Of a DNA stretch of 64,000 nucleotides, positions 22,693 through 41,596 are shown one piece after another; position 1 is the stretch's first letter; every line of letters begins with the position of its first letter. The stretch is from sequence record NC_052654.1; one strand, given 5' to 3'. The notes beneath the pieces were generated by a model, which saw nothing but the letters and a program-made list of their open reading frames with translations, had not been told where the DNA came from and did no database searches. The stretch comes from Escherichia phage vB_EcoM-Ro121c4YLVW. A program made the translations under genes and the position numbers.

Positions 22693-22715
22693 TAGGGGCT
22701 TCGGCCCCTTTTTAT
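22693..22715 (+). terminator. intrinsic terminator AGGGGC-TTCG-GCCCCT + TTTTT
   Basis: Direct reading; same hairpin recurs at 28862 and 40961. Confidence 0.6.
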
Positions 22716-22730
22716 TGAGGAGAATTTTAA

Positions 22731-23816
22731 ATGGCAGCAATTAATTTACACAATGAAGTTTACAAAACAGGAAAATATCCAGTATTTTTAGGGGAACAAT
22801 TAGGGATTTTTGATTCTGTTAACGTAACTTATCCAGAGATGCACAAACTCTACAAACTTCAAAAAGCACAAGATTGGGATGAGAATGAAGTCAATCTGGA
22901 TCAAACACGTAAAGATTTCGTAGCTTGTTCTAAAAACAACTATGATGTTATGATTAAAAACTTATCGTTCCAATGGGAAAATGATTCTCTTGCAAAATCA
23001 ATCATCACTTTGTTCTCTCCATTCTTGAGTAACAATGAAGCCTGTGCTATGATGATGAAGCAGAGTGAAATGGAAGTTCTCCATGCGTTAACGTATTCTG
23101 AAATAATCCGTCAATGTACTCCAGATCCAATCGAAGTCATCAATCAGATTATGATTAATGATAAAATTTTCAATCGTATGGGTATCATTGCTGATATCAT
23201 GGGTCAGTTGGAAGAAGCTGGTCATAAGTATGCTCTAGGATTGATTGAAGCTAACGATGAACTTCGACTGCTGATTCTTAAAGGGATGGTAGCCCTGATT
23301 GGATTAGAAGGTATTCAGTTTATATCTTCCTTCTCTGCTACTTTTGCTATGGCAGAACAACAACTGTTTGTTGGGGCTTGTAAACTGATCCAGAAAATTA
23401 TGCTAGATGAAATCTTGCATGTTAAGATGGATTACGCTGTAATTGATGCATTGATGCATGACCCAATTTGGCGTAAAATTTACGAAGATAATATTGAAGA
23501 GTTGACTTTGATCCTCGACACTGTTGTTGAACAAGAGGAACAGTGGTGTGACTACCTGTTTAGTGAAGGGCGTTTTATTGTAGGTCTTAACGCCGAATTG
23601 TCTAAACAGTGGGTTTATTTCAATGCTGCTCCTATTTATCGTCGATTGAAAATGAAAGCCAAGTTTAAAGCACCTAAACATAGTCCTTTAGCTTGGATGG
23701 AAAAATGGTTGAATCCTGATTTGATTCAGTCAGCAGCCCAAGAGATTCAGTTAACTAATTACAAATTGAATTCAGCTAACAAAGATCTCTCTGATGATGA
23801 GGAGCTTGACTTCTAA
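22731..23816 (+). CDS. nrdB: ribonucleoside-diphosphate reductase small subunit NrdB
   Basis: Size and position after nrdA, ferritin-like helical profile with conserved E/H ligands. Confidence 0.8.
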   Translation: MAAINLHNEVYKTGKYPVFLGEQLGIFDSVNVTYPEMHKLYKLQKAQDWDENEVNLDQTRKDFVACSKNNYDVMIKNLSFQWENDSLAKSIITLFSPFLSNNEACAMMMKQSEMEVLHALTYSEIIRQCTPDPIEVINQIMINDKIFNRMGIIADIMGQLEEAGHKYALGLIEANDELRLLILKGMVALIGLEGIQFISSFSATFAMAEQQLFVGACKLIQKIMLDEILHVKMDYAVIDALMHDPIWRKIYEDNIEELTLILDTVVEQEEQWCDYLFSEGRFIVGLNAELSKQWVYFNAAPIYRRLKMKAKFKAPKHSPLAWMEKWLNPDLIQSAAQEIQLTNYKLNSANKDLSDDEELDF

Positions 23817-24025
23817 TGATTTTGAGATGTGTTGGTATAATCGACACATTCAAAGACGTTTTTGATAAAGGGGCTTCTTATGAAGCCTCTGAAATGAAGA
23901 ATGGTTTTTGTGATGTATTCGGTAAACGCCTGAAGAAAAACGGCGATCCTTGGCTAGGAGTTATGTCTTGTGGTCATATTATTGTAAATGGTGTTGCCAA
24001 ATTTGAAATAATTAAGGAGGAATAG
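23816..24025 (+). CDS. hypothetical protein
   Basis: ORF track; ATGA overlap with nrdB stop. Confidence 0.4.
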   Translation: MILRCVGIIDTFKDVFDKGASYEASEMKNGFCDVFGKRLKKNGDPWLGVMSCGHIIVNGVAKFEIIKEE

Positions 24026-24177
24026 TGGCTGAAAAACTTATTTTTTGTCCTGTGTGCGGTGGGACGGGACAGATGGAAGTGGAAATTATGGTAACATTTC
24101 CTTGCCTGAATTGTCATGGTGAGGGGCGAGTAGTAGTCTTTGAAAAAGAAGGGTTGGAGGTAGAAGATGGAGAGTGA
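24025..24177 (+). CDS. small zinc-ribbon protein (CPVCGG...CLNCHG)
   Basis: GTG after AAGGAGG; two CxxC pairs. Confidence 0.35.
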   Translation: MAEKLIFCPVCGGTGQMEVEIMVTFPCLNCHGEGRVVVFEKEGLEVEDGE

Positions 24178-24331
24178 AAAAGAGTATGTCCGCATTCCAC
24201 GAGAATTAACAGATCACATTGCAGAAGCAATAGCTTTCGAAGCTAGATGTTGTGGAGGTATTGCTTACGATATTTATGAAGCAATTATTAAAGCTGCTCA
24301 AGAAGAGGAGGAGATGAATAATGGGTATTGA
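24167..24331 (+). CDS. small hypothetical protein
   Basis: ATG after GGAGGT; overlaps neighbours at both ends. Confidence 0.3.
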   Translation: MESEKEYVRIPRELTDHIAEAIAFEARCCGGIAYDIYEAIIKAAQEEEEMNNGY

Positions 24332-24647
24332 TATCGAATGGCGTATGTTACAGGGTGCACCATATGATAAATGGAAAGAAATATTTGGAGACGACCCACA
24401 AGTTGAAGACCAGTTCGATGGGGACTTTAATTGGTTTCTCTGCGAAGGTTTGGGCTTGGAAAACATTTCCCCGTGGTACGATGCAGATCCTGAAGATTGT
24501 GTCTTCGGTGTCAAGCTGTGTAGCGGCTGTGGTGCTTGTGCCATAGACCTCACAAGCTTAAATAAAAAAGCGAATGAGATCTATTTTGAACTGCTTAATA
24601 AGTATAATATTGAAACTGAAACATTAGTATCACAAAACGTCTGGTAA
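24321..24647 (+). CDS. hypothetical Cys-containing protein
   Basis: ORF track. Confidence 0.45.
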   Translation: MGIDIEWRMLQGAPYDKWKEIFGDDPQVEDQFDGDFNWFLCEGLGLENISPWYDADPEDCVFGVKLCSGCGACAIDLTSLNKKANEIYFELLNKYNIETETLVSQNVW

Positions 24648-24656
24648 GGAGAACTG

Positions 24657-25649
24657 ATGCGCTATCTGGTAACAGGTGGTCTTGGTTTTATTGGGAGTGC
24701 CGTGGTGCGCTCTCTTTGTCAAGATCCTAATAACGAAGTTTTTGTCGTTGATAAGATGAGCTATGCAGCAGATATTGAGAATGTAGGCGATATCACTCAC
24801 GTTAAACTAAGCATGACAGATTTGGCAAACGAAGCCCAAGTAAAAAGTTTAGTAGTAGAGTGCAATCCCGATTTCATCATTCACTTAGCGGCAGAGAGTC
24901 ATGTGGATAATTCTATCAAGAATCCACGAGTTTTCATCGACTCCAATATTATTGGTACATACAATTTATTGGAAGCTGCAAGGCTCCTCCCAAAGAATAA
25001 ACTGAAGATGTTCGTACACGTCTCCACAGACGAAGTGTACGGCGATATGGCAGACTCTGGCGTTCCCTTTACCGAAGAGACAGCTTATGCCCCTTCAAGC
25101 CCATACAGTGCGTCTAAGGCAGCATCTGACCATCTTGTGAAAGCTTGGCACCGTACCTACGATTTGCCTGTTGTGATAACCAACTGCTCCAATAACTTTG
25201 GACCTTATCAACATCCAGAAAAGCTGATCCCAAAAATCATCACAAGTATTTTGACGAATAAAGAGATTCCGGTGTATGGTAAAGGCGATCAGGTGCGAGA
25301 CTGGCTTTTTGTTGAGGATCATGCGAGAGCTATTCTTCAAGTGGCAACAGGTGGAGAACCAGGCCAAACGTATAACGTTGGAACACGTAATCCCAAAACC
25401 AATATGGAGATCATCTATATGGTTTGTGACTACATGGATGCTGTACATCCAGAAGCAGGAACCTACCCTTCTTCCAACTTGATAACTTTTGTTGAAGATC
25501 GTAAAGGACATGACTTGCGTTATGAAATCAATCCTTCTAAGATAGAGTCTGAACTGGGTTGGAGTGCAAACTCTACATTTGAACAAGATCTCTACTCAAC
25601 GATTGAATGGTACTTAAACAACCCTCAATGGTGGAGTGAGAAGATTTAA
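24657..25649 (+). CDS. rmlB: dTDP-glucose 4,6-dehydratase
   Basis: Rossmann GGLGFIGS, catalytic YxxxK (YSASK), SDR-extended family length. Confidence 0.85.
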
Positions 25650-25657
25650 GGAGGGCT

Positions 25658-26536
25658 ATGAAAGGTATTATTTTGGCTGGAGGAAGTGGAACCCGCCTTC
25701 ATCCGGTAACACGCAGCGTGAGCAAGCAATTGCTCCCTGTGTATGACAAACCCATGATCTACTACCCTTTATCGGTATTGATGTTGGCTGACATTAAGGA
25801 TATCTTAATCATCACCACACCAGGCGATCAGGAAGACTTTGAGTATCTTCTCGGAGATGGGTCTATGTTTGGGATAAAACTCACTTACGCAATCCAATCC
25901 GAGCCACGAGGTCTTGCGGACGCTTTCATCATCGGTAAAGATTTTATCGGAGAAGACTCTGTTGCTCTTATTTTAGGTGACAACCTATTCTTCGGACAAA
26001 GCTTTGGTAAACTACTGATTAACGCCAGTGAGATGGTAGATGTTTGGGGCGGAGCTTGTATCTTCGGGTATTTGGTGAAAGATCCTGAACGATTCGGTGT
26101 GGTTGAATTTGGGAGTAATCGTCAAGCTATTTCTATTGAAGAGAAACCTGAAAATCCTAAATCAGATTACGCTGTCACAGGTTTGTATTTCTATGATAAC
26201 TCTGTTGTTCAACGTGCATTAGAAGTAACCCCTTCCGCGCGTGGAGAACTGGAGATCACAGATATCAATCGCAGCTACCTCGAAGACAGGAAGTTACAAG
26301 TGGAAGTTCTCGGACGAGGATTTACTTGGCTTGACACAGGAACACACGCCAGTCTGATGGAAGCTGGTCAATTCGTGCAGACTATTGAGAACCGGCAAGG
26401 ATTGAAGATTGCGTGCCTGGAAGAAATTGCTTTCAAAAAAGGGTGGATTTCTTTAGAGACTTTGGTGTATCATGGAAACTCACTGAAGAAAACAGAATAC
26501 GGGCAATACCTACTCAAATTAGCGGAGAGAAAATGA
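25658..26536 (+). CDS. rmlA: glucose-1-phosphate thymidylyltransferase
   Basis: N-terminal [16 protein letters not shown] nucleotidyltransferase signature; 292 aa. Confidence 0.85.
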
Positions 26537-27099
26537 AAGTAGAAAAAACAAAAATTGAAGGTGCGGTAATTATCAAACCAGACGTTTATAAAGATGATCG
26601 TGGTTTCTTTTTAGAAACATATAATGAACAAAAATACGAAGATATTATTGGTAGACAAACTTTCGTTCAAGATAACATGTCTAAATCAAACTTCGGTGTT
26701 TTGCGAGGAATGCACTTTCAAACAAATAATCCGCAAGGTAAGCTTGTTCGTTGTGTAAGTGGGGAAGTATTGGATTTCGCTGTAGACCTACGTAAAGATA
26801 GTCCTACTTACGGTGCTTGGGACGGTGTTGTTCTTCGTGCACGACACCATACACAGTTCTGGCTTCCACCTGGTTTGGCACATGGTTTTATAGTGTTGAG
26901 TATGGATGCTATCTTCGAATACAAATGCACAACTCCATACGACCCTTCCAGCGAACAAAGTTTACGTTGGGATGATCCTGATATAGGGATTGATTGGGGC
27001 TTCGATATGATTTTTGACGAAGATTTTAAACCTATCTTATCAACAAAAGATGCAATGGCTAAGTCTTTTCAACAGCTACGTAGCGAGGGTGTATGCTAA
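26533..27099 (+). CDS. rmlC: dTDP-4-dehydrorhamnose 3,5-epimerase
   Basis: Cupin-type RmlC (about 188 aa) beginning [14 protein letters not shown]; ATGA overlap with rmlA. Confidence 0.8.
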
Positions 27100-27935
27100 C
27101 ATATCTGGTATTGGGCGGTAATGGACAACTGGGACAAGCTTTACGTAAAGTGGCTCCTTCAAATGTATCTTTAATTTATCCTAAAGAACGTGTAGATATT
27201 ACAAATTTTGAAGCTGTGCGAAACGCTATTGTTGAAGATTATGTAGATGGTGTTATTAATTGCGCTGCTTATACGGCTGTAGATAAAGCAGAACATGATT
27301 TTGCTACTGCTTTGGCTGTTAATTCCTACGGCCCTGCAAACATTGCAGCAGTGTGCAGTAAACTTAAAATTGATTTTGTGCATATTTCTACAGACTATAT
27401 TTTTAATTACTCTCATCCTATTTTTGAAGATACTACACCTAACCCAATAAACAATTATGGGTATACGAAAGAACTTGGTGAAAAAATGGTGCGAGGAGTT
27501 AACCCAAATGCATATATTATTCGAACAGCCTCGGTATATAGCGAATTTGGAAATAACTTTCTAAAAACCATGTTGTCTCGCTATAATGATGGACAACGTG
27601 ATTTTATTATTGTTGCTGATCAGTTCTCTTGTCCAACATATGCTCCAGATTTAGCAGAAGCTATTTTTGAAGTATTAAAAACAGGTTGGTCAAGGTCTGT
27701 TAAGACTTACCATTTTGCAGGAAGCCATCTTATTTCTTGGGCGGAGTTTGCGGAAAAGATCTTGACACAGATGCCAGAACCTGTTAAGATATCGGCGGTA
27801 TCAGCTTCAACCTATAATGCTCCAGCAGCACGTCCGGTGAAGTCACAATTAGTAACCAGTCACTATCTTACAAAATCAGATTTAAATAAAGGTATTGAAC
27901 GGTCTTTAGCAGTATTACTTAATAAGGAGAGGTAA
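27093..27935 (+). CDS. rmlD: dTDP-4-dehydrorhamnose reductase
   Basis: Rossmann LVLGGNGQLG; completes the B-A-C-D operon. Confidence 0.75.
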   Translation: MLTYLVLGGNGQLGQALRKVAPSNVSLIYPKERVDITNFEAVRNAIVEDYVDGVINCAAYTAVDKAEHDFATALAVNSYGPANIAAVCSKLKIDFVHISTDYIFNYSHPIFEDTTPNPINNYGYTKELGEKMVRGVNPNAYIIRTASVYSEFGNNFLKTMLSRYNDGQRDFIIVADQFSCPTYAPDLAEAIFEVLKTGWSRSVKTYHFAGSHLISWAEFAEKILTQMPEPVKISAVSASTYNAPAARPVKSQLVTSHYLTKSDLNKGIERSLAVLLNKER

Positions 27936-28195
27936 TGGAATTTGTAATTTTTGGTAAACCTAACTGTCAATTTTGCGAAATGTCAAAACAACTATTAACC
28001 ATGCGCAATAAACAGTTTGAATATTTAAGTCTTGACCAAGACTACGATTTAGAATCAATGACTAAAACAGTTGTTGATCTTACCGGAGTTCCTCCACGCA
28101 CATTTCCACAAATTCTGTCTGAAGTGAACGGGGAGGTAACATACGTAGGCGGTTTTACCGAACTGCGTGATCTCATGGCTCAAATTGCGGAGTAA
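27935..28195 (+). CDS. glutaredoxin/NrdH-like thioredoxin-fold protein (CQFC)
   Basis: CxxC after beta-strand near N-terminus; 86 aa. Confidence 0.55.
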   Translation: MEFVIFGKPNCQFCEMSKQLLTMRNKQFEYLSLDQDYDLESMTKTVVDLTGVPPRTFPQILSEVNGEVTYVGGFTELRDLMAQIAE

Positions 28196-28199
28196 CACT

Positions 28200-28349
28200 T
28201 ATGAAAAGTAAACAGAAACGTAAGATCTTTTCTCGTGCTTTGGCAAATGAGCTGAAGTCCAACATAAAGAAAACGAAACCAAAACGTGAAACTTCTCCAG
28301 AACATCTGTTGTTTAATGAGTTGGATCACGGAGTAGGAGACGACGAATA
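28200..28349 (+). CDS. small basic hypothetical protein
   Basis: Short ORF filling gap. Confidence 0.25.
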
Positions 28350-28357
28350 GGAAGTAA

Positions 28358-28858
28358 ATGGCTAAAGTAGTAGATGAGTTTGATATGCTACGAGTCGATG
28401 AAGGACTGAAGCTTACTGTTTATCAAGACCATCTTGGTTATTGGACAGTCGGCATAGGACACCTTCTGACTAAAATAAAAGATAAAGCAAAGGCTATTCA
28501 AATCTTAGATAATCTCCTTGGTCGTAAGACCAATGGAGTTATCACAGAAAAAGAAGCCCGTCAAATCTTTGCTGACGATGTTGCAAAAGTGAAGAGAGAC
28601 ATAAAAAACAGTGCTATCTTATCACCAATCTATGATAAGGTGAGTGATACTCGTAAATTGGGAATAATCAACATGGTTTTCCAGTTGGGGTTAAAAGGTG
28701 CTGAAGGGTTTAAAAATAGCTTGACTTTAATCAGCAATGCATATTATACTCAAGCAGGTAAAAACATGCGTAAAAGCCGATGGTATAGCCAGACGCCAAA
28801 CCGTGCTGAACGAGTAATTAAAGTTCTGACTTCTGGAACTTTAGATGCTTACAACTAA
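28358..28858 (+). CDS. e: T4-type lysozyme (endolysin, gene e homolog)
   Basis: EMLRVDEGLKLTVYQD..GYWTVGIGHLLTK matches T4 lysozyme catalytic region (Glu, Asp, Thr). Confidence 0.9.
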   Translation: MAKVVDEFDMLRVDEGLKLTVYQDHLGYWTVGIGHLLTKIKDKAKAIQILDNLLGRKTNGVITEKEARQIFADDVAKVKRDIKNSAILSPIYDKVSDTRKLGIINMVFQLGLKGAEGFKNSLTLISNAYYTQAGKNMRKSRWYSQTPNRAERVIKVLTSGTLDAYN

Positions 28859-28860
28859 TA

Positions 28861-28880
28861 AAGGGGCTTCGGCCCCTTCT
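28861..28880 (+). terminator. hairpin AGGGGC-TTCG-GCCCCT
   Basis: Direct reading. Confidence 0.45.
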
Positions 28881-28895
28881 AAAAGGAGTGCTACT

Positions 28896-29654
28896 ATGGG
28901 AAATAAAACCGCAGCTAAAACACAACGGCAGAAACTGGCTAATTCAGCAAAGATTGAAAGCCGTTATGCAGCAAAAGCGGTAGGTAATGACGATTACCGT
29001 TTAGATGAATTTATGCCTGAAGGGGACCAAAATAAGATTGTTCAAAGCATGATTTGGAATGATCTGACTGTTGTAAATGCTCCGGCAGGGACTGGTAAAA
29101 CCTCTGTTGCTTTATGGAAAGCTTTGCAGATGCTTCGTTCAGGAGACTTCCGTAAACTACTTTTTATCAAGAACCCTACTGAAGTCGGAGATGACCAGAT
29201 TGGTTTCTTGTCTGGGGATAAAACAGATAAACTAGCAGCACACTATGAATCTACAAAACGTATTTTCCAGCAATTCATGACAGCCAACAAATTGGAAAAC
29301 GATATTGGATCAGGTAAGATCGAATTGAATATTCCTAACTATTTGTTGGGGGCTACCCTGGATAATACAATCGTCATTATTGACGAAGCACAACTCATGT
29401 CAACAGAAACACTTAAACTTCTTATTGAACGTGCAGGTATTAATACGCATGTTATTGTATTAGGCGATGTTCGCCAGACATATGCAATTAAAAAACGTAG
29501 CAATGGTCTGCATCAAATTTTGGAACTTTTATATCCAGAAAATGAAGAAGGTGTTCGTGAGCCAATTGTAGATTTTATTGGATACGTTGAACTGACAACG
29601 GACGATAATAAACGTGGACGTTTGTCTAAACTGATTACTGAAGTGTTTATTTAA
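28896..29654 (+). CDS. phoH: PhoH-like ATPase
   Basis: Walker A NAPAGTGKTS; start moved to Met after AAAAGGAG. Confidence 0.75.
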   Translation: MGNKTAAKTQRQKLANSAKIESRYAAKAVGNDDYRLDEFMPEGDQNKIVQSMIWNDLTVVNAPAGTGKTSVALWKALQMLRSGDFRKLLFIKNPTEVGDDQIGFLSGDKTDKLAAHYESTKRIFQQFMTANKLENDIGSGKIELNIPNYLLGATLDNTIVIIDEAQLMSTETLKLLIERAGINTHVIVLGDVRQTYAIKKRSNGLHQILELLYPENEEGVREPIVDFIGYVELTTDDNKRGRLSKLITEVFI

Positions 29655-29686
29655 TAATGTGGCAGGGAAGCCATTTATAAGGAGGA

Positions 29687-30190
29687 TTGATGGGTGTAGC
29701 AACAATAGCTATCGGAAGAAGCGGTATAGATGAGTGCTATCAAACGGGACTCGTAAAACCTAACGAATTTCGTCAAATTTGTGTAAACCATATTGAAAAA
29801 GAGATTGCTCTTACTTTAGAGAATATGACCCTCCGAGATAAACTGGAAATGTTTAAATGTTGGTGTCTAGGAGAAGATTGGCTTTTAAACCATTTTCAAG
29901 AACTTTCTGATAGTAAAGAAAGCTTGTTTGATTGTATAATAGGAATAGCTGGCTCCGATCCTAGCCTTCTGCACATAACAGAAGAAGAGGCGAAGTTACT
30001 GTTCTTAAGTAATTTGTTTAATAAGAAAGCACTGCTTGTTCGTGATTGTAGTGATCTTCTTAATAACCCGCTCGCAACGTCTGATCAAATTTTTGTTGAC
30101 AAAGAGACACTACGTGCGATAGAATACATCTGCAAATATGTGAATGGCGGGAAAGCGGTTCTTAAAACATTAACAGAGGAGGAAGAATAG
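29687..30190 (+). CDS. hypothetical protein
   Basis: ORF track. Confidence 0.45.
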   Translation: MMGVATIAIGRSGIDECYQTGLVKPNEFRQICVNHIEKEIALTLENMTLRDKLEMFKCWCLGEDWLLNHFQELSDSKESLFDCIIGIAGSDPSLLHITEEEAKLLFLSNLFNKKALLVRDCSDLLNNPLATSDQIFVDKETLRAIEYICKYVNGGKAVLKTLTEEEE

Positions 30191-30882: not shown

Positions 30883-30887
30883 CAAAC

Positions 30888-30908
30888 TGCCCCTTCGGGG
30901 GCATTTCT
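30888..30908 (+). terminator. intrinsic terminator GCCCC-TTCG-GGGGC + TTTCTT
   Basis: Direct reading. Confidence 0.5.
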
Positions 30909-30927
30909 TAAACATAGGAGATTAATA

Positions 30928-31855: not shown

Positions 31856-31867
31856 GGAGTGTGAACT

Positions 31868-32307: not shown

Positions 32308-32352
32308 TATACTTATACTCCCTTTTCGGAGGGAGTATTTTAAGGAGGGATT

Positions 32353-33134: not shown

Positions 33135-33144
33135 GGAGGAAGGA

Positions 33145-33474: not shown

Positions 33475-34214
33475 TCATACACAGAGAAATTACTGTTAAA
33501 AGCGATCAAGATCTTTTTATAATTGGAGATCTACACGGTTGTTATAATTTGTATGAAAAAGGAAAGGCAAAGTTAGGTATCCGAGATACAGATGTGGTTG
33601 TATCTCTAGGAGATCTTACTGACCGTGGAAAGCAAAACTTTCGTTGTGTTTTAGAATTTACTCGTAAACACAATCGCTACGCTATTCGTGGCAATCATGA
33701 AGACATGATGATTAAAGGTATGCTGGAAGGAGATCGTAGCTACTACGAGTGTTGGTATCAAAATGGAGGATATACGGTCTTTGAAGAATGTGGTGAAGAA
33801 GGAGCTACAGCCTTAGCAATGATGACAGAAGATTTACCTGTTGTTCTCATTGTTAACTACAGAGGCATGAAACTTGCGTTTATTCATGGTGGGTATCCAT
33901 CTTCTTTGGAATATCTCCCTGTAACAGATATTCCAGAATACATTTCGAAGATGACAAAAACACAGGAAAACCGTTTTGCTGAAGCACTTATGTGGGACAG
34001 AGATATGGTAGACTGTGCTAAAGAGGGAATGAAACTTCCTGTTGTGATGGGTGTGGATTATGTGTTTCATGGACACTCTTATGTAAAAACACCTATTATC
34101 AATGCGAATCGTGTTTATATGGATACTGGATCTGTGTTCAATAATAACTTAACATTTGCTTATTTCGATATGGACGGTGGTCTTCAATTTTATTCAACTC
34201 TTGAGGAGGATTAA
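33471..34214 (+). CDS. PPP-family Ser/Thr protein phosphatase (lambda-phosphatase-like)
   Basis: GDLHG, GDLTDRG, GNHE metallophosphatase motifs. Confidence 0.7.
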   Translation: MIIHREITVKSDQDLFIIGDLHGCYNLYEKGKAKLGIRDTDVVVSLGDLTDRGKQNFRCVLEFTRKHNRYAIRGNHEDMMIKGMLEGDRSYYECWYQNGGYTVFEECGEEGATALAMMTEDLPVVLIVNYRGMKLAFIHGGYPSSLEYLPVTDIPEYISKMTKTQENRFAEALMWDRDMVDCAKEGMKLPVVMGVDYVFHGHSYVKTPIINANRVYMDTGSVFNNNLTFAYFDMDGGLQFYSTLEED

Positions 34215-34522
34215 TGTATAAGATTACAATTATTCAAAGTGTAGGTAATATCCGTAAAGAAGTTATCTTAGAAACAGAAGATGTTAATCTTGTTCGTGAG
34301 ATTGTTCTTAAGGAAGATAACCTGCAAGCTGTAGAATCAGATGCACCGAATCTTATGGTGGATCAAGAATATTCTGAACTTCGTCGTATTTTTGAAGAGA
34401 TTCAGAAGAAAGAAACACAACCTACCATAAAACCTTTTGGCCCTTATGATCCGAGCAATCCTAGCAGTCCTTGGATCATGAGAAATACGGAACCCTATAC
34501 ACCTTTTGAAATTACTTGTTGA
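34214..34522 (+). CDS. hypothetical protein
   Basis: ORF track. Confidence 0.4.
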   Translation: MYKITIIQSVGNIRKEVILETEDVNLVREIVLKEDNLQAVESDAPNLMVDQEYSELRRIFEEIQKKETQPTIKPFGPYDPSNPSSPWIMRNTEPYTPFEITC

Positions 34523-34529
34523 GGTGATT

Positions 34530-35111
34530 ATGGCAGAACTGTTCTATACGGGAGTTGGAAGTAGAGACATATCCGAAGAAGAGTGGGCTTTGATGGTAGG
34601 CATAGGGAAATGGCTTTCAAACCTTGGGTTTAAATTAAGGTCTGGGAAGGCAGAGGGTAGTGATTCTGCTTTTGAAACAGGTGTCCAAGAGTCTGAAAAT
34701 CCTACTAACAAGGAGATTTATGTTCCTTGGGAAAATTTCAAAGGTAATCAGATTCCAGGGGATGTTATTGTTCTTGCAAAACCAGATACAATGAACTATG
34801 CTATCTCTGTGCAATGGATCAAAGATGTTCACCCAGCCTATGAAAAGCTTAAGCAGGGTGCTAGAAAATTGCACCAACGTAATGTGCATCAAGTGTTAGG
34901 TAGAGATTTGGAGAATCCTGCTCCATCATGTTTCTTGTTGGCTTGTGCTAATACTGATAAACATGGAGATGCAAAAGGTGGAACAGCTACGGCTTGGAAG
35001 ATAGCTAAAGCCAATAATGTTCCTTGTTTAAACATTCGTGGGAAAACAAAACAAGAGATTTACGATTTTCTACGACCTTTGGTAATGAGGGCAATAACAA
35101 GTGATTCCTAA
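34530..35111 (+). CDS. Rossmann-like SLOG/DprA-like nucleotide-binding protein (tentative)
   Basis: GVGSR...SGKAEGSD glycine-rich pattern; start moved to Met after GAGGTG. Confidence 0.3.
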   Translation: MAELFYTGVGSRDISEEEWALMVGIGKWLSNLGFKLRSGKAEGSDSAFETGVQESENPTNKEIYVPWENFKGNQIPGDVIVLAKPDTMNYAISVQWIKDVHPAYEKLKQGARKLHQRNVHQVLGRDLENPAPSCFLLACANTDKHGDAKGGTATAWKIAKANNVPCLNIRGKTKQEIYDFLRPLVMRAITSDS

Positions 35112-35613
35112 ACGTAAACGTGGTGAACAAAGAACAAACTTGGCAGAAATCTTAGATTACAACATGGTTAATGATGTGACAAAAGAAATTCTGCCTGTTG
35201 TAGAAGATATTCTTCAAAGAGGGTTACGATTCTGCTCGGATCGGGTGCATTTCATGTGGACACATAAAAGTGACTCCGCTTTGAATTTCTATCCTTTGGA
35301 TTATACTCTGAACAATACAGAGATGAAAGATATCAACAAATACTTAATGGGATATAAAGATATAACCGAAACCGTTCTTGGAGAATTGGCAGAAATCTTG
35401 GCTAACGATATCCTTAGAAATATTAATAAGGCTCTTGACAGAAGCCCAGCAGGAGTAGTAGTATCTTTTGCTGTGCCAGATATGGTTAAATATGAGTCTA
35501 CAATACCTAATAAAGCTTATGCCTTTCTTCGGAGAGACGTTCGTGGAAATGTGTTGGAGATGGAGTCAAACTACAAGATTGAGGAGGTTTTATGGCAGAG
35601 TTCGGATCAGTAA
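35101..35613 (+). CDS. hypothetical protein (GTG start)
   Basis: ORF track. Confidence 0.4.
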   Translation: MIPKRKRGEQRTNLAEILDYNMVNDVTKEILPVVEDILQRGLRFCSDRVHFMWTHKSDSALNFYPLDYTLNNTEMKDINKYLMGYKDITETVLGELAEILANDILRNINKALDRSPAGVVVSFAVPDMVKYESTIPNKAYAFLRRDVRGNVLEMESNYKIEEVLWQSSDQ

Positions 35614-35882
35614 CAAGTTTTGAAAGTAACTTCGTTACCGCTTGGGAAGCTTGGGATGAAATGGGTGTTGGGGAACTTTATTTTTACAATGTAACACTAC
35701 GTCCAGAGTATGCTTACCTGGTACCAGAAGGAACAGTTCAAATTGGCATGTATCTGTCTTCTCAAGACGGTGTTGTTCAATTTGAGTTTTATTCAAACAC
35801 AACGGACAACGAATTTACATATCGTGCATTTCATGTCAACATGTCTTTAGGAGAGGAGAAATTTTATGACGACCAAGTTTAA
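35592..35882 (+). CDS. hypothetical protein
   Basis: ORF track. Confidence 0.4.
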   Translation: MAEFGSVTSFESNFVTAWEAWDEMGVGELYFYNVTLRPEYAYLVPEGTVQIGMYLSSQDGVVQFEFYSNTTDNEFTYRAFHVNMSLGEEKFYDDQV

Positions 35883-36063
35883 AACAGTAGAAGAAGCCGT
35901 AAAAGCAGCTTATGAGGCTTTAGCGGAAGCAGAGCAGTTAGCAGATGAGACTGGTAAAGGTTTCCGTTTCTCCCCTGAATATGGGATGGGTGGCTATTAT
36001 GATCCAGAAGATGAAAATGAGAATACTGGAACAAATTGGCATCCATCTTCTTTAAGTTGTTAA
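35866..36063 (+). CDS. small protein, C-terminal W-H-P-S-S-L-S-C family member 1
   Basis: ORF track; shares C-terminal WxSSxC tail with two downstream genes. Confidence 0.45.
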   Translation: MTTKFKTVEEAVKAAYEALAEAEQLADETGKGFRFSPEYGMGGYYDPEDENENTGTNWHPSSLSC

Positions 36064-36074
36064 TAGGAGGTAGA

Positions 36075-36350
36075 GTGGGAATCGAAGATATCAAAGGTTA
36101 TAAGGCGCATACTGACGATAAGATTGGCAAGGTTAACGCTATTAAAGATGCAGAAGAGCGTTTAGGTTTAATCTTCAAAGCTTTAGAGGAAGAGTATTGT
36201 GAAGCATATCATGGGTCTTTTGACGGCACAGAAAAAGAATTAGGTCTTGCATACGAACGTATTGATCAAATCCGTTGTGCTATTAGACATTTAAAAGAAG
36301 CTAGTATGTGGGCTTGTCGTTCAGTTTTCCAACCAGAGGAGAAATACTAA
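36075..36350 (+). CDS. hypothetical protein (GTG start)
   Basis: GTG after AGGAGG within ORF 36036..36350. Confidence 0.4.
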   Translation: MGIEDIKGYKAHTDDKIGKVNAIKDAEERLGLIFKALEEEYCEAYHGSFDGTEKELGLAYERIDQIRCAIRHLKEASMWACRSVFQPEEKY

Positions 36351-36568
36351 TGAGTGATCGTAATGTTGAAGAATTAACTGAAAAAGCCCAAGCTATTATG
36401 GCTTTAGTGGACGAACTTACAAAAGAAGCTGAAGATGCTGGTTTTGGTCTTAGTTTAGAAAATGACGCAATCTGTTTTGAAGATTGGCAATCCTCTTCTT
36501 GTTATGGTGAAGGTGATGATGGTTTCGTCGTTAATTCTCAAGGTGTTTGGCACAGTAGTAGCTGTTAA
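36350..36568 (+). CDS. small protein, C-terminal W-H-S-S-S-C family member 2
   Basis: Internal Met after GAGGAG. Confidence 0.45.
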   Translation: MSDRNVEELTEKAQAIMALVDELTKEAEDAGFGLSLENDAICFEDWQSSSCYGEGDDGFVVNSQGVWHSSSC

Positions 36569-36577
36569 GGAGAGATT

Positions 36578-36850
36578 GTGGAGTCTGAAGGCGAACTGCT
36601 GATAAAAAAGAAAGTTAAAGAGATGGAACAAGCACAAAGAAAGTTTCGTAAGGAGATTGAAGAACTTTGTGAACAGTTTCAGGAACAAGCTTGGATAGGT
36701 GACTACGGTAACGGAGAAACTTATTACCCTACAGGAACGCCAGCCGCAGATCACTATATTGATTTCATTTGTGAAGATTATGGTGTAGAGTTGGATGAAA
36801 ATGGTTTAACCACAAGAGGTGTTTGGATCTCTTCTTCCTCAATGTGTTAG
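36578..36850 (+). CDS. small protein, C-terminal W-I-S-S-S-S-M-C family member 3
   Basis: ORF track; GTG start after AAGGAGAG. Confidence 0.45.
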   Translation: MESEGELLIKKKVKEMEQAQRKFRKEIEELCEQFQEQAWIGDYGNGETYYPTGTPAADHYIDFICEDYGVELDENGLTTRGVWISSSSMC

Positions 36851-36858
36851 TAAATAAT

Positions 36859-36881
36859 AACCCGCTTCGGCGGGTTTTTTA
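36859..36881 (+). terminator. intrinsic terminator ACCCGC-TTCG-GCGGGT + TTTTTT
   Basis: Direct reading. Confidence 0.6.
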
Positions 36882-36910
36882 TTGACAGGAATCTGGAAGC
36901 TTGATAAACT
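36882..36910 (+). promoter_or_regulatory. sigma70-like promoter TTGACA-N17-TAAACT
   Basis: Direct reading. Confidence 0.45.
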
Positions 36911-36940
36911 TAACCTATCAACCAATAGAGGAGAAATATT

Positions 36941-37882
36941 ATGGTGTTAATTGGTAGCCGTGCATTGCAAATTCATGCTATGGACATGGGAAAAGACTTG
37001 TATCGCCCTTGTGTAGATTTAGATTACCTGTGTACAGAACAAGAGTGGGAAGAATTATCAAAAATGTTCTCTCAAGAGGAGTTTGTTGAACTTGTAGAAC
37101 GTAAAGGAAACAAAGGCCATGTCAAAATGATAGCTGGTGCACATTTGGAATACGATATTGCTTCTCAAGGAGATAGCACAGAAGCTTTGATTAGTTATTG
37201 TGAAGATTCTGATGATGTTCGTCGAACTTACGCTGGACATGTTGTTGCTCCTTTAGATGTGCTCTACCTTCTTAAAATGAGTCATCGTTTTAAAAAGGAT
37301 AGTCCTCACTTCTTTAAAACTATGAAAGATATTCATTTCATGCGGTCACTGGGCGCAAAGATCCCAGAAAATCTTAAGAGTATTTATGAGTTGCGTGAGA
37401 AAGAAACATACACTTACTCTCATCCGAACTTAAACGTAAAAAGTAAAGACTTTTTTAAAGGTGATGAGGTTCCGTATGTTTATGATCATGATTCTATCCA
37501 TGAAGCAATCGCGGTAATGGATGCTCCGGCATATAAATCTTATATGAAAGATGGAAGTGAAGTTATGACCAGCAAAGAAAAGTTTTTTGCTCAACCAAAA
37601 CATGTGCGCCTGTTAGGTGTTTATGAAGAAGCGTGTGTTTTGGCTTTGGAACGTTCACAAATTCCTTTCGGTGGAGAGATCGGAGGTCCAACCCCTAAGC
37701 AAAGTTTTATAATGGCTTTATCTAAAGTCTGCACATCCATCACTAGTGGTTGGTTTAGGGAATATGCTTGGGAAAACTTTTATGTTGTTATTAAGCTATA
37801 TGAAAACATGGGCGAAAACGACTATGTTGAACGTTTTAAAGCTAATCAACATGTAGTAAAGCCTTTTGAAGGAGGTTATTAA
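36941..37882 (+). CDS. hypothetical protein (313 aa)
   Basis: ORF track. Confidence 0.5.
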   Translation: MVLIGSRALQIHAMDMGKDLYRPCVDLDYLCTEQEWEELSKMFSQEEFVELVERKGNKGHVKMIAGAHLEYDIASQGDSTEALISYCEDSDDVRRTYAGHVVAPLDVLYLLKMSHRFKKDSPHFFKTMKDIHFMRSLGAKIPENLKSIYELREKETYTYSHPNLNVKSKDFFKGDEVPYVYDHDSIHEAIAVMDAPAYKSYMKDGSEVMTSKEKFFAQPKHVRLLGVYEEACVLALERSQIPFGGEIGGPTPKQSFIMALSKVCTSITSGWFREYAWENFYVVIKLYENMGENDYVERFKANQHVVKPFEGGY

Positions 37883-37883
37883 T

Positions 37884-38279
37884 ATGTGTGGATATCTTTC
37901 AGAAAGTTATTTCAAAGTGACGCACGAGGATTTAGAAAAAGCACGATTGAAACTGACAGCTATTATTGAATACTCTAATACTGTTGATCACAGATTAAAG
38001 ACTACTAAAGTATCTGTTCCTTGTTGGTTAGGTTTACGGCATAAAATAATGTCTCAACATGACCATGTTGTTCGAGAGATGCATGGTTGGTGTTGGTTTC
38101 ACGATGTGGCTCTGCATTTTGGTTATATTACAGAAGAAGAGCATAGATTCTGTGAACTAACATATCGTATTCCAACCCTTCACGATTTAGATTTGTGGAA
38201 GAAAGCAAACGAGATTTTTCTTACAGAAAGTGATTGGCGTAAAGTTATGGCTTGTCTTGAATGGAGGGGTAATGAGTAA
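37884..38279 (+). CDS. hypothetical protein
   Basis: Internal Met of ORF 37866..38279 after GGAGG. Confidence 0.45.
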   Translation: MCGYLSESYFKVTHEDLEKARLKLTAIIEYSNTVDHRLKTTKVSVPCWLGLRHKIMSQHDHVVREMHGWCWFHDVALHFGYITEEEHRFCELTYRIPTLHDLDLWKKANEIFLTESDWRKVMACLEWRGNE

Positions 38280-38955
38280 AACAGTTTTGTCTATGTTTGA
38301 CGGATCTGGGATCATGGTGTTACGTTATGCCGAAGCAGGTCACAAGTGTTTTTGTGTAAACGCTGATGAAGGGGATCACGGTAAATACGAGGTTAGGATG
38401 GAGCACCCAAACATAACCTATGTGAATGCCTGGATAGATTCTACATTCAACCCTGAAGATCATGGGATACCTAAACCCGATATTATTTTTGGATTTCCAC
38501 CTTGCACTATGTTAGCAGGTAGTGGTAGCAAACACGAACGCAGCACAGAGGAATTGGATGAAGCTTTAGCTAATATTCGTGTAGTGGAAGCTTTGGGTAA
38601 CAAATATAATGTTCCTTGGATGATTGAGAACCCAGTAGGTAAACTTTCAACCTTATGGCGTAAACCCGATTTTTACTTTGATCCTTATGAGTATGGTGGG
38701 TATTTGTTTGAAGAGGAAGGAAGCTTTCATCCTAAAATGCCTACCCGTGATGGGTATACAAAGAAAACTTGTATTTGGCACGGCAATGGTTTTGTTCAAC
38801 CAGTGAAGAAACCAGTAGATCATATAGGCTGCTTCTGGGGTTGGAAAAGCTTAGGTGGAGCTAGTGCAAAAACAAAACAACTTAGATCACTAACCGCACG
38901 TGGTTTTGCTCGTGCAGTGTTTTTGTCTAACAATCTTCTAGATAAGGAGAAATAA
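38272..38955 (+). CDS. C5-cytosine-methyltransferase-like SAM-dependent enzyme (tentative)
   Basis: Motif order FDGSG (I), GFPPC (IV, PC), ENP (VI-like), R-rich C-terminus; short for a complete Dcm. Confidence 0.4.
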   Translation: MSKTVLSMFDGSGIMVLRYAEAGHKCFCVNADEGDHGKYEVRMEHPNITYVNAWIDSTFNPEDHGIPKPDIIFGFPPCTMLAGSGSKHERSTEELDEALANIRVVEALGNKYNVPWMIENPVGKLSTLWRKPDFYFDPYEYGGYLFEEEGSFHPKMPTRDGYTKKTCIWHGNGFVQPVKKPVDHIGCFWGWKSLGGASAKTKQLRSLTARGFARAVFLSNNLLDKEK

Positions 38956-39608
38956 TGTTAAATTCAAAACCAGTGGTTGCTTATCAAGTAGATCGTAATG
39001 ATGGTGAAGGAAGTGTTGTTATTTTCAGTACACACGGTCTTGAGGCTCGTCGAAAAGGTGCATATCGTTTAGAATGTGAGTTTGAAGACTGCACAAGCCA
39101 CCGTGTCAAACAATTCGATCAATATGCTGATAAAGGCTTCGTCCCTATCAAAGCGTTACTGGAAGATGGTTGGTGGGTATATTCTGCTTTTGATTACTCA
39201 AAACTGGAGGAGTCAGCTTCGTGCGCCTCCGAGATCGAATATGATGATTACTATGACACTCTATACCTTCCAGAATGGCTTGTCTTTTCTCCTGATGAGA
39301 GAAGTGTCTGGAAAACGTGGGAAGAAATGGAGAGACATGCGTATAGCATCAATGAAGCTTTAGATCGTAAAACTTGGTTTATTGAGGCAGTAAAGGCGGC
39401 ATACCCCCAATTCTCATTCTGTGATTTCACTGGCGGCCCAGGATACATTACACATACAGCCTCTTTTGAGTTTCCTGGTTCACGTTATAAGGGTAATGTT
39501 TATTGGGACTGGGATGAAAATAAACAACCTTCGGCTCAAGACTTCCGTTGCTATGTTTGTCAAGGCGATCAAGAAGCCCTTGACAAATACCTACAAAATC
39601 TGGTATAG
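38955..39608 (+). CDS. hypothetical protein
   Basis: ORF track. Confidence 0.45.
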   Translation: MLNSKPVVAYQVDRNDGEGSVVIFSTHGLEARRKGAYRLECEFEDCTSHRVKQFDQYADKGFVPIKALLEDGWWVYSAFDYSKLEESASCASEIEYDDYYDTLYLPEWLVFSPDERSVWKTWEEMERHAYSINEALDRKTWFIEAVKAAYPQFSFCDFTGGPGYITHTASFEFPGSRYKGNVYWDWDENKQPSAQDFRCYVCQGDQEALDKYLQNLV

Positions 39609-39624
39609 TGCCAGCATCTGAACA

Positions 39625-39653
39625 AAGCCTCCTGTTTCAGGGGGCTTTTCTTT
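39625..39653 (+). terminator. intrinsic terminator AGCCTCCTG-tttc-AGGGGGCT + TTTTCTTTT
   Basis: Direct reading. Confidence 0.55.
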
Positions 39654-39666
39654 TATAGGAGGGAAT

Positions 39667-40152
39667 ATGTTTCAAGTAAATGTCAATGTGCATAATAGTT
39701 ACTCTGATTGTGAAACGTGTGGCTATAATTCATCTAATGTTATTCGTATTAGTGGCGATTTAGGAGAAGCTTCTTTTGGAGAAGAAGCAAGTTGCTTTAG
39801 TGGTATGGATGCAGAATGGAATGATATTGCACATTGGTTAGTGAGCAAACTAAAAGAAAAAGAGAAACCATTTCCTACTCTGCTTGATCGTTCTCTTGTG
39901 GAAGATGCAGGTAAAGCATATGCAGACTATGCGTATGCAGACGGGAAATATTTGGAAGATGATAAGGCTAACCATTTGCTTTATGTTTACTATGAAGCTG
40001 AATCTGCCTACGATAATTATTACAGCATGTCTAACATCCTACGTCTGTTTGCAGAGTTTGATATTTATTTCGAAGTAGAATTTTCAGAAGATGATACTTA
40101 CGAGTACAATTCTTATGATCCATTTGAGGAGGAAGAATGCCAAGACGAGTGA
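39667..40152 (+). CDS. hypothetical acidic protein
   Basis: ORF track. Confidence 0.45.
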   Translation: MFQVNVNVHNSYSDCETCGYNSSNVIRISGDLGEASFGEEASCFSGMDAEWNDIAHWLVSKLKEKEKPFPTLLDRSLVEDAGKAYADYAYADGKYLEDDKANHLLYVYYEAESAYDNYYSMSNILRLFAEFDIYFEVEFSEDDTYEYNSYDPFEEEECQDE

Positions 40153-40952
40153 TTTTTGTAAGCGGTGCAGGTTTAAGTGCAGACAGTGGGATTCGAACAT
40201 TTAGAACAGACACAGATAGTGGTCGTGCTTTATGGGAAGAATATGATTTAGAAGAGGTCTGCGATATTGGAGCTTTCCAAGCAGGTTATCGTGTTAGAAC
40301 ATCTCCAGATCTTCCAGTGGTCGGTGGTGTAGACGAGAACGGTATGGATTTGTATGCCAAAACACACGAATTTTATAACAAAAGACGTGTTGAGCTTAAA
40401 GATGTACAACCTAATGCTGCACATATTCAAATAGCAAAGTGGTTTAAGGAATATCCTAACCAAATAGTAAACTTGACAACAAACGTTGATGATCTACTAG
40501 AGCGAGCAGGTGTAGACAGAGATTCTGTTATTCACGTACACGGATATCTTCCTGAAGTAGTTTACCGTATGCATCCCGGAGATTACAAAACACTGGTAGA
40601 TATTGGTTACAATAGTATAAACATAGATGATTATAACTGGGTGAAGCCTAATGTTGTATTTTTTGGTGAGGCTGCACCTTTGTATGCAGATATGGCTCAC
40701 TTGTTCGATACTTTGACCATGCAAGATTTGGTTGTAGTAGTAGGATGTTCAAACCAAGTTATCAATTTTAATTGGGAATTATTTCCTGCACTTAGTATGG
40801 GTACAAAAATGGTTGTAGTTAACCCTGGAGTTAATTACGAAGAAACACTTCTCTATGAAGATCGTGGAGTTTTTGTTTACCGAGAAAAAGCTGCAACAGC
40901 CTTCAGCAATGAAGGTTTCATTAAAATGGTCGAAGACCACTTAAACAAATAA
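40137..40952 (+). CDS. Sir2-family (sirtuin-like) NAD-dependent protein
   Basis: N-terminal FVSGAGLSADSGIRTFR matches sirtuin NAD-binding signature; VHVHGYL catalytic His region. Confidence 0.65.
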   Translation: MPRRVIFVSGAGLSADSGIRTFRTDTDSGRALWEEYDLEEVCDIGAFQAGYRVRTSPDLPVVGGVDENGMDLYAKTHEFYNKRRVELKDVQPNAAHIQIAKWFKEYPNQIVNLTTNVDDLLERAGVDRDSVIHVHGYLPEVVYRMHPGDYKTLVDIGYNSINIDDYNWVKPNVVFFGEAAPLYADMAHLFDTLTMQDLVVVVGCSNQVINFNWELFPALSMGTKMVVVNPGVNYEETLLYEDRGVFVYREKAATAFSNEGFIKMVEDHLNK

Positions 40953-40960
40953 ACCACTCA

Positions 40961-40983
40961 AGGGGCTTCGGCCCCTTTCTTAT
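40961..40983 (+). terminator. intrinsic terminator AGGGGC-TTCG-GCCCCT + TTTCTT
   Basis: Direct reading. Confidence 0.55.
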
Positions 40984-40995
40984 TAGGAGAATAAA

Positions 40996-41268: not shown

Positions 41269-41282
41269 AACAAAGGCACCCA

Positions 41283-41568: not shown

Positions 41569-41596
41569 ACGACCTCCTATTGCTACAGATATGAAA

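Follow-up and report, generated by a model that had tools for sequence, protein, structure and literature searches.

Six short stem-loops, each capped by a UUCG tetraloop and located just past a stop codon, are present in the window (the whole 64-kb stretch of phage DNA analysed here), and judging from sequence and predicted folding they are probably leaky intrinsic terminators that double as stabilisers of mRNA 3' ends. The window belongs to a Phapecoctavirus, a phAPEC8-like E. coli myophage of the Stephanstirmvirinae. The hairpins are already known, being of the standard, very stable C(UUCG)G kind found downstream of E. coli phage genes in the role of leaky terminator or RNA-end protector: they are annotated as terminators in near-identical public genomes and are found letter for letter in T4. 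The GenBank entry MK373788.1, which is 99.9% identical to the window, carries ARNold terminators at four of the six hairpin sites (window positions 22695, 36860, 40962, and 41599), and the phAPEC8 and ASO2A records also contain terminator features in the Sir2 region. No transcript 3'-end data or transcript maps for Phapecoctavirus were found in the searchable literature; we therefore infer termination, as well as leakiness and RNA stabilisation, from what is shown directly, i.e., the sequence and position of these elements, the way they are oriented and conserved, the fold predicted for them, and their presence elsewhere.

The 16-nt sequence AGGGGCTTCGGCCCCT occurs exactly three times in the window, always on the + strand (22694-22709, 28862-28877, and 40961-40976), and 100 dinucleotide-preserving shuffles of the window contained no occurrence of it. 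The sequence-only reading, which had placed one 16-nt stem-loop after nrdA, a lysozyme gene, and a Sir2-like gene, is thus borne out, and its gene names agree with the Pfam assignments of the three upstream genes (NrdA, phage lysozyme, and Sir2). Copy 1, AGGGGC-UUCG-GCCCCU with the tail UUUUAUUG (22694..22717, + strand), is located 7 nt past the nrdA stop codon and has a predicted minimum free energy (MFE) of -12.7 kcal/mol; the nrdB SD lies downstream, with the nrdB ATG at 22731, and the hairpin is annotated in MK373788.1 as an ARNold terminator (-13.9). With their A:U extension, copies 2 and 3 read AAGGGGC-TTCG-GCCCCTT in the DNA (28861-28878 and 40960-40977). Copy 2 (AAGGGGC-UUCG-GCCCCUU, 28861..28878, + strand) is found 2 nt past the lysozyme stop codon and 5 nt upstream of the SD of a PhoH-like gene; its U tract is poor (CUAAAAGG past the stem, with T at one of eight positions), and MK373788.1 has no terminator call at this copy. 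Copy 3 (AAGGGGC-UUCG-GCCCCUU with the tail UCUUAUUA, 40960..40985, + strand) lies 7 nt past the Sir2 stop codon, with the next ATG at 40996, and is again an ARNold terminator (-13.9) in MK373788.1.

Three variants, noted before at 30888, 36859, and 41598 (the last given as 41600), are real and as described. The first, UGCCCC-UUCG-GGGGCA with the tail UUUCUUAA (30888..30911, + strand; TGCCCC-TTCG-GGGGCA at 30888-30903), is located downstream of an HslV/proteasome-like gene and has a fold z-score of -3.5 against shuffles; there is no ARNold call for it in MK373788.1. The second, AACCCGC-UUCG-GCGGGUU with the tail UUUUAUUG (36859..36884, + strand; AACCCGC-TTCG-GCGGGTT at 36859-36876), follows a 93-aa ORF and has the canonical shape of a terminator (fold z-score -4.3; ARNold terminator, -12.7, in MK373788.1). 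The third has the same stem and loop with the tail UUUUCAUA (41590..41615, - strand; hairpin at 41598-41615, where TTCG is read on the - strand) and lies between two - strand ORFs, homologues of gp133 and gp134 of the complete relative ukendt (fold z-score -3.95; ARNold terminator, -13.7, - strand, in MK373788.1). All six hairpins in the window are thus of the C(UUCG)G type, i.e., a UUCG loop on a C:G closing pair. Two other terminators were located in the same region. A 10-bp bidirectional terminator, AAAGGCACCC-AAGU-GGGUGCCUUU (41272..41295; -17.9 and -19.0 kcal/mol), which MK373788.1 also lists as a terminator, marks the point where the + and - gene blocks converge, and the GC skew switches sign there. 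A non-UUCG hairpin, AAAGCCUCCUG-UUU-CAGGGGGCUUU followed by a U tract (39624..39648, + strand), is an ARNold terminator in MK373788.1 and sits in the same gene block as the + strand UUCG hairpins.

The placement of the six hairpins is uniform: each occupies a short intergenic gap, 2-8 nt past the stop codon, with UUCG reading in the local gene direction. In ukendt, all eight C(UUCG)G hairpins are likewise intergenic and in sense orientation, CGAA being found in sense in none of the eight; by a tally from the ukendt gene table, non-coding DNA makes up only approximately 3.8% of the + strand cluster of 36 kb. The stems are perfect, 6-9 bp in length including the A:U extension, and contain five G:C pairs, with predicted MFE values of -12 to -13.7 kcal/mol and z-scores of -1.9 to -4.3 against shuffles. 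Tails with at least five T in eight positions follow five of the six hairpins (at 22710, 30904, 36877, 40978, and, on the - strand, 41597). The post-stop position, the strict sense orientation, the T-rich tails, and the ARNold calls at four of the six sites support the terminator or mRNA-stability role that the sequence-only reading had suggested. A DNA-level palindrome (protein site or cruciform) was rejected as the main reading, since the loop and the T tail, which alone lack symmetry, follow transcription at 6/6 window sites and 8/8 ukendt sites. With the ViennaRNA parameters used here UUCG earns no special bonus, and the energies of UUCG, GNRA, and UUUU loops on the GGGGC stem are much alike; the property "hyperstable" is therefore taken from published experiments, the stability of C(UUCG)G over other loops resting on melting and NMR work (PMC4371310).

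We propose that the short G+C stems with C(UUCG)G caps would act at the RNA level, on the sense strand and past stop codons. The long co-directional operons that carry them are probably transcribed by the host RNA polymerase; no annotated RNA polymerase was found in the ukendt gene table. Once transcribed, a hairpin would fold fast, and where a U-rich tail follows (22694, 30888, 36859, 40960, and 41598) intrinsic (Rho-independent) termination may result. The gaps between nrdA and nrdB and after Sir2 are 37-44 nt long and contain no promoter of their own for nrdB or for the following ORF; because these are internal operon positions with no downstream promoter, termination there would be partial, and such internal hairpins could determine how much upstream message is made relative to downstream message. 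A 3' hairpin that remains on RNA after termination or processing may also shield it against 3' exonucleases. Immediately past the 36859 terminator there is a sigma-70-type promoter, TTGACA-17-TAAACT with an extended -10 TG (36882..36910, + strand), and TTGACA followed by TAAACT or TAGACT is kept downstream of this hairpin in the relatives L127, L128, L130, and alia; since a conserved promoter stands directly past the hairpin, the latter probably forms a unit boundary. With its nearly absent U tract, the copy between the lysozyme and PhoH-like genes most likely serves chiefly to stabilise the 3' end or the RNA structure, or else as a very weak attenuator.

Although this lysozyme-PhoH hairpin has a poor U tract in all lineages, it is kept without exception 5-8 nt ahead of the SD, as would be expected if the hairpins were not terminators at all and served only after transcription, either as barriers to 3' exonucleases once RNase E has cut the AU-rich spacer or as fold insulators that free the nearby SD. 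We consider this unlikely. The absence of promoters for nrdB and the post-Sir2 ORF within their 37-44 nt gaps speaks in its favor, as transcription must therefore pass through the hairpins; against it are the T-rich tails at five of the six hairpins, the four calls by the terminator predictor, and the conserved promoter past 36859, which is expected of a real unit end. The same hairpin is, moreover, preferentially followed by T runs in unrelated contigs: the 16-mer was found in at least 120 IMG/VR stretches of 33-64% GC with 115 distinct flank contexts, among which a T-rich tail accompanies 70 in the UUCG orientation vs. 32 in the other, and a stop codon lies within 12 nt upstream in 95. (The IMG/VR loci are uninformative as a gauge of GGGGC usage among UUCG terminators, the sample having been selected on that stem.) Several observations count against our own reading: the stems are short, 6-7 bp and up to 9 bp when the additional A:U pairs are included; a ribosome that halts 2-8 nt upstream would melt the hairpin for a time; the lysozyme-PhoH copy has no usable U tract; and ARNold is silent on this copy and on the one after the HslV-like gene.

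A hairpin is present at each site in all relatives examined, the more distant Sir2 loci excepted. Between the lysozyme and PhoH-like genes the stem is invariant and the loop is UUCG, GCAA, GUAA, or GAAA; after nrdA the loop is either UUCG or GAAA, except where the hairpin takes the form GGGGG-CUUUGU-CCCCC; after Sir2 the loop is UUCG, UACG, or GAAA. The hairpin downstream of the HslV-like gene becomes AACCCC-CUCAC-GGGGUU in alia, with the two outer pairs altered on both sides. The 36859 hairpin is invariant in all relatives examined, though its upstream protein falls to 35-46% identity, and the 41598 hairpin is kept in L136, L138, L139, and alia. Because loops are swapped on a kept stem in related genera, selection appears to act on a stable hairpin and not on a UUCG signal for a dedicated factor; in other words, it is the structure, not the UUCG letters, that seems to be selected. 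The GGGGC/GCCCC stems at the three sites show no compensatory change over 70-100% protein identity, a sequence conservation higher than selection on structure alone would strictly demand and a point against the reading proposed here. Because GAAA caps both the lysozyme and the Sir2 hairpins in alia, the three copies were at first suspected of concerted evolution or gene conversion; this was rejected as a rule, since contig 3300014004_000001 has three stems capped by three loops (UUCG, GCAA, and UACG) and L128 has GAAA and GUAA.

The sequence-only reading had concluded from exact reuse that the 16-mer is a dedicated element read by a specific factor. A three-fold occurrence of the 16-mer is indeed far above the chance expectation for random sequence. 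Within the class of hairpins whose 5-bp G/C stem closes on a C:G pair, the probability that three of 6-9 hairpins share one stem is ~0.07-0.24 when all 16 all-G/C stems are given equal weight, and ~0.001 with a 256-stem space; the departure of exact stem reuse from randomness is therefore only mild to moderate. If a particular protein of the phage or its host (e.g., a processing nuclease, antiterminator, or regulator) bound the 16-mer as a dedicated signal, this would account for the three exact copies in 64 kb and for a GGGGC/GCCCC stem that stays the same across genera at three sites, with no compensatory change; such a signal is nonetheless extremely improbable. The loop, which is the most accessible specific part, is freely swapped for GNRA or UACG at orthologous sites, and loops differ among the three sites inside one genome. 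The counting of the exact motif and the comparison with related phages, both suggested before, show that the motif is not special to this phage, given its presence with diverse flanks in IMG/VR and in T4, and that the UUCG loop is exchanged on the same stem. An RNase III site needs about two turns, or roughly 20 bp, of dsRNA; the longest helix here is 6-9 bp even with the flanks, and the RNase III processing site entertained earlier is thus unlikely. An Rfam 15 scan of the 64-kb window at gathering score returned tRNAs only, leaving the hairpins without a family. The C(UUCG)G hairpin was first found in T4 mRNA, and the published view of the CUUCGG loop is that "No proteins bind to it" (PMC4371310). 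In our reading, the three copies are identical not because a factor recognises their sequence but because an old GGGGC/GCCCC stem has been conserved at each of the three sites and, in this genus, happens to carry the same stable tetraloop at all of them.

Copies 1 and 3 share ~14/16 further downstream bases (read by eye), comprising the T tract and SD, and within the + strand block GGAGAAT directly precedes the start codon at these two copies only. Such sharing could arise if hairpin, T-rich tail, and SD formed a portable "terminator-RBS cassette", copied between intergenic sites by recombination and marking module boundaries, comparable to the mobile promoter/stem-loop cassettes of T4-type phages. 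The nrdA-nrdB junction just past the hairpin is an indel hot spot, where relatives carry an extra ORF or an HNH endonuclease; five of the at least 120 IMG/VR stretches contain two copies of the 16-mer within 15 kb; and a 10-nt direct repeat flanks the 41598 hairpin. Target-site duplications or flanking repeats were sought at all six hairpins and none were found at the five other sites, an empty site was found in no relative, loops are not homogenised within genomes (UUCG, GCAA, and UACG in L127/L138), and a shared T tract and SD are obtainable from function alone, so that we consider the portable cassette very improbable. A copied cassette that acts as a recombination joint for gene-module exchange is also improbable; if true, it would account both for one stem having stayed unchanged across genera at three sites and for the gain and loss of ORFs and homing endonucleases between nrdA and nrdB.

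Read as leaky terminators and 3'-end stabilisers, the hairpins have little import beyond annotation and imply no new mechanism. For the phAPEC8-type block of nucleotide-metabolism genes they would locate the points of attenuation and those of the transcription units, and two unannotated hairpins of the same kind are added, those following the lysozyme and HslV-like genes. The cross-genus comparison provides a natural example in which UNCG and GNRA tetraloops appear interchangeable on one conserved terminator stem.

Among known systems, the closest are the C(UUCG)G hairpins of T4 intercistronic regions, reportedly described by Tuerk et al. (1988, PNAS 85:1364). The first 50 kb of T4 contain seven such hairpins, seven in sense and none in antisense, and the identical 18-mer AAGGGGCUUCGGCCCCUU is found between regA and gene 43 (T4 29952-29969). 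Both sets have a UUCG loop with a C:G closing pair, lie between cistrons, and occur on the sense strand only; the phage families are unrelated (T4 belongs to the Straboviridae, this phage to the Stephanstirmvirinae), whereas the element itself is the same. As in the intrinsic terminators of E. coli and its phages (ARNold, TransTermHP), a G+C stem with a tetraloop follows the stop codon, at five of the six sites with a T-rich tail, and UUCG and GNRA tetraloops are said to be over-represented in E. coli terminators (d'Aubenton-Carafa et al. 1990). Unlike typical intrinsic terminators, the window stems are at the short end (five G:C plus 1-3 A:U pairs), several are located at operon positions that rule out complete termination, and the lysozyme-PhoH hairpin lacks a U tract. 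REP hairpins, e.g., in malE-malF, are intercistronic mRNA-stabilising stem-loops; like them, the window hairpins are stable structures directly past a cistron in a polycistronic message, with unequal expression of the upstream and downstream genes as the likely result, but REP elements are longer, imperfect, and protein-bound, whereas the window hairpins are minimal tetraloop hairpins with T tails.

The window comes from a phAPEC8-like E. coli myophage of the genus Phapecoctavirus (Stephanstirmvirinae; ~150 kb). It shares 98.8% identity with phage KKP 3954 across 8 kb and, across the Sir2 region, 99.9% with Schickermooser. Genes between ~5 kb and 41.27 kb are on the + strand and those further on are on the - strand; the GC skew flips at the switch, and a 10-bp bidirectional terminator (41272-41295, both strands) marks the convergence of the two gene blocks. 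By our own tally of gene-table gaps in the complete relative ukendt (NC_052661, joined from four fetched pieces), non-coding sequence makes up only ~3.8% of the 36-kb + strand cluster, and a G+C hairpin sits in nearly all its gaps of ≥35 nt. No RNA polymerase is annotated in the complete ukendt genome, and therefore host polymerase and host-type terminators are expected. A tRNA cluster of 10-11 genes (Met x2, Ile, Pro, Gln, Gly, Thr, Asn, Ser, Arg) lies at 1757-3769 on the - strand; the tRNA at 2987-3071 is an extra one scored by Rfam and not listed by ARAGORN.

The 16-mer AGGGGCTTCGGCCCCT, i.e. the hairpin AGGGGC-TTCG-GCCCCT, occurs in exactly three copies in the window, all on the + strand at 22694 (copy 1), 28862 (copy 2), and 40961 (copy 3), as the sequence-only reading had described, and is absent from 100 of 100 dinucleotide-preserving shuffles of the window. 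Pfam agrees with that reading on the genes ending just 5' of the copies (NrdA, phage lysozyme, and a Sir2-family protein) and places NrdB and a PhoH-like ATPase after copies 1 and 2. The variants noted near 30888, 36859, and 41600 were recovered in our own scan for perfect G+C-rich tetraloop hairpins: TGCCCC-TTCG-GGGGCA 3' of HslV at 30888-30903 (+ strand), and AACCCGC-TTCG-GCGGGTT at both 36859-36876 (+ strand) and 41598-41615 (TTCG read on the - strand). The + strand has six G+C-rich tetraloop hairpins at 22-42 kb; five of them, and likewise the - strand hairpin at 41598, have C(UUCG)G, a UUCG tetraloop closed by a C:G pair, in the local gene direction. There are 25 CTTCGG hexamers on the two strands of the window, with stems of ≥6 bp at only the six UUCG hairpins. 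Each of these begins 2-8 nt 3' of a stop codon, copies 1-3 end 5-10 nt 5' of the next Shine-Dalgarno (SD) sequence, and the predicted folding energy is -12 to -13.7 kcal/mol. The helix is too short for an RNase III processing site, another proposal of the sequence-only reading, which is thereby ruled out.

Counted genome-wide in ukendt, C(UUCG)G hairpins number eight, all eight intergenic and all eight reading UUCG in the direction of the adjacent genes; hairpins with CGAA in sense are absent from the complete genome. The stem is GGGGC/GCCCC in three and CCCGC/GCGGG in two. A fourth GGGGC/GCCCC hairpin, AAGGGGC-UUCU-GCCCCUU at ukendt 138544-138561 (- strand) 3' of the DNA polymerase gene, has a UUCU loop and is followed by UAUAGGAG without a T tract, and the remaining terminator-like hairpins have GNRA or longer loops. 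Since loop and T tail are the only asymmetric parts, their strict sense orientation points to a function in RNA, not DNA.

Orthologous junctions were compared in Justusliebigvirus alia and in IMG/VR relatives retrieved with the PhoH-like and Sir2 proteins (loci L125-L140). Between lysozyme and PhoH, the stem GGGGC/GCCCC is invariant across 70-100% PhoH identity, and the loop is UUCG in the window and L126, GCAA in L127, GUAA in L128 and L130-132, and GAAA in alia, L129, and L133. After nrdA the same stem carries UUCG in the window and L127 and GAAA in L128 and L131/132; the alia group has GGGGG/CCCCC, in the hairpin GGGGG-CUUUGU-CCCCC. After Sir2, GGGGC/GCCCC is capped by UUCG in the window, UACG in L138, and GAAA in L136/137 and L139/140, and no hairpin is present at the loci of Sir2 homologues with 52-59% identity. 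The HslV hairpin is TGCCCC/GGGGCA in the window and AACCCC/GGGGTT in alia, i.e. two outer pairs are altered on both sides, and AACCCGC-UUCG-GCGGGUU (36859 and 41598) is invariant in all relatives compared. In a single contig, 3300014004_000001 (L127 + L138), the same stem is capped by UUCG, GCAA, and UACG at the three sites. Across these junctions, the pattern is a conserved stem plus any cap from the UNCG/GNRA stable-tetraloop repertoire, with loops unhomogenised within a genome, and the three identical copies in Phapecoctavirus are one state of this system. A conserved stem with exchanged loops argues for selection for a compact stable hairpin, not for a loop-specific recognition signal.

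The exact 16-mer is not special to this phage: an IMG/VR scan found it in at least 120 stretches, and among the matches listed (33-64% G+C) there are at least 115 distinct 12+12-nt flank contexts. Among these listed matches, a stop codon lies ≤12 nt upstream in 95 of 115 contexts and an SD-like motif ≤25 nt downstream in 51 of 115; ≥5 T in the 8 nt after the hairpin were counted in 70 of 115 in the UUCG orientation vs 32 in the opposite one. At least five of the listed stretches hold two copies, so reuse inside one phage is not unusual. A dedicated protein-recognised element, which the sequence-only reading had drawn from the exact reuse, is disfavoured by the loop exchange at orthologous sites, by the ubiquity of the 16-mer in other phages, T4 included, and by the published literature; the generic part of that interpretation, a terminator or stability hairpin, stands.

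How improbable the reuse is hinges on the assumed size of the usable stem space. With 16 equally likely all-G/C 5-bp stems closed by C:G, three identical stems among 6-9 hairpins have P ~0.07-0.24, and in a 256-stem space P ~0.001; the shared stem is mildly to moderately non-random. It is old, since every genus examined has it at each of the three sites, and may have arisen by either duplication or convergence on a favoured stem.

A portable terminator-RBS cassette is hinted at, and nothing compels it. By our own reading copies 1 and 3 have ~14/16 downstream nt in common, and only there within the block does GGAGAAT lie directly 5' of the start codon. The nrdA/nrdB joint (22710-22731), immediately 3' of the nrdA hairpin, is a hot spot for indels among relatives (compared in L125, L127, L128, and L131), where the insert is either an HNH endonuclease (nieznany, EF1-1) or a small ORF of ~110 aa (alia gp199); in the window nrdB follows directly, without insert. 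The 41598 hairpin is flanked by a 10-nt direct repeat, GTAGCAATAG, in Phapecoctavirus only.

T-rich tails are present at five of the six hairpins, the best at 36859 and 41598. The 36859 hairpin, with its good tail and a sigma-70 promoter (TTGACA ... TAAACT or TAGACT) next downstream in the window and always in the relatives compared, looks like a true transcription-unit end. The nrdA and Sir2 copies lie within gaps of 37-44 nt that have no promoter ahead of the next gene and so would be read through some of the time, as probable leaky terminators whose hairpin would also protect the 3' end of the upstream message. Directly 3' of the lysozyme/PhoH stem is CUAAAAGG; this tail is similarly poor across all lineages compared, which makes a stabiliser or very weak attenuator more likely there, and a purely post-transcriptional role of some copies is possible. 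As the stop codons are 2-8 nt upstream of the hairpins, ribosomes that terminate there would briefly melt these structures, and termination efficiency may hinge on transcription-translation coupling.

Other promoter-hairpin arrangements were observed. On the - strand at 41560-41670, a promoter-like TTGACA-17-GATAGT (GATACT in L138) lies upstream of the 41598 terminator, its -10 overlapped by the palindrome ATAGGAT-AGTG-ATCCTAT, in L138 GTAGGAT-ACTG-ATCCTAC with the outer pair altered on both sides. A near-consensus promoter, TTGACA-18-TATAGT with TG (39580-39609, + strand), inside the end of an ORF, stops 15 nt short of a terminator hairpin (39624-39648, + strand), so its transcripts would start nearly at the terminator and be either very short RNAs or carry a hairpin in the 5' leader. 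At 58000-64000 (- strand) a ~60-nt intergenic cassette recurs between small early genes: a strong sigma-70-type promoter (TTGACA-16-TAATAT, extended -10 TG), the hairpin GCGGCA-AUGG-UGCCGC 12-13 nt beyond without a T tract, then SD and ATG. Examples on the - strand are promoter 63715-63688 with hairpin 63675-63660, promoter 62110-62083 with hairpin 62071-62054, and a hairpin at 60731-60716; ukendt has at least seven copies, and alia has variants GGCGGGAAA-UGG-UUUCCCGCC. These resemble hairpins in the 5' leaders of early transcripts.

In the Schickermooser record (MK373788.1), features labelled 'putative transcriptional terminator, determined by ARNOLD' fall at window 22695 (+, -13.9), 36860 (+, -12.7), 40962 (+, -13.9), and 41599 (-, -13.7), and non-UUCG hairpins are annotated at window ~32316, 39627, and 41275. 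The lysozyme/PhoH (28861) and HslV (30888) hairpins have no terminator annotation there, in keeping with their weaker T tails. In the Sir2 region, terminator features are present in the records of phAPEC8 and ASO2A too. Terminator predictions are routine in papers on related phages, with 20 Rho-independent terminators and E. coli-type promoters listed for rV5 (PMC3606486) and 55 such terminators for Phapecoctavirus ASO2A (PMC10612097). No transcript maps for the Phapecoctavirus group were found in the searchable literature.

The first 50 kb of T4, a stretch with all genes on one strand, has seven C(UUCG)G hairpins, all of them in sense, and the regA/gene 43 hairpin, AAGGGGC-UUCG-GCCCCUU, is identical to copies 2 and 3. 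The C(UUCG)G hairpin class was reportedly discovered in T4 mRNA in 1988. A factor-specific reading is not borne out; the feature is of the kind described then, already annotated in public records of Phapecoctavirus.
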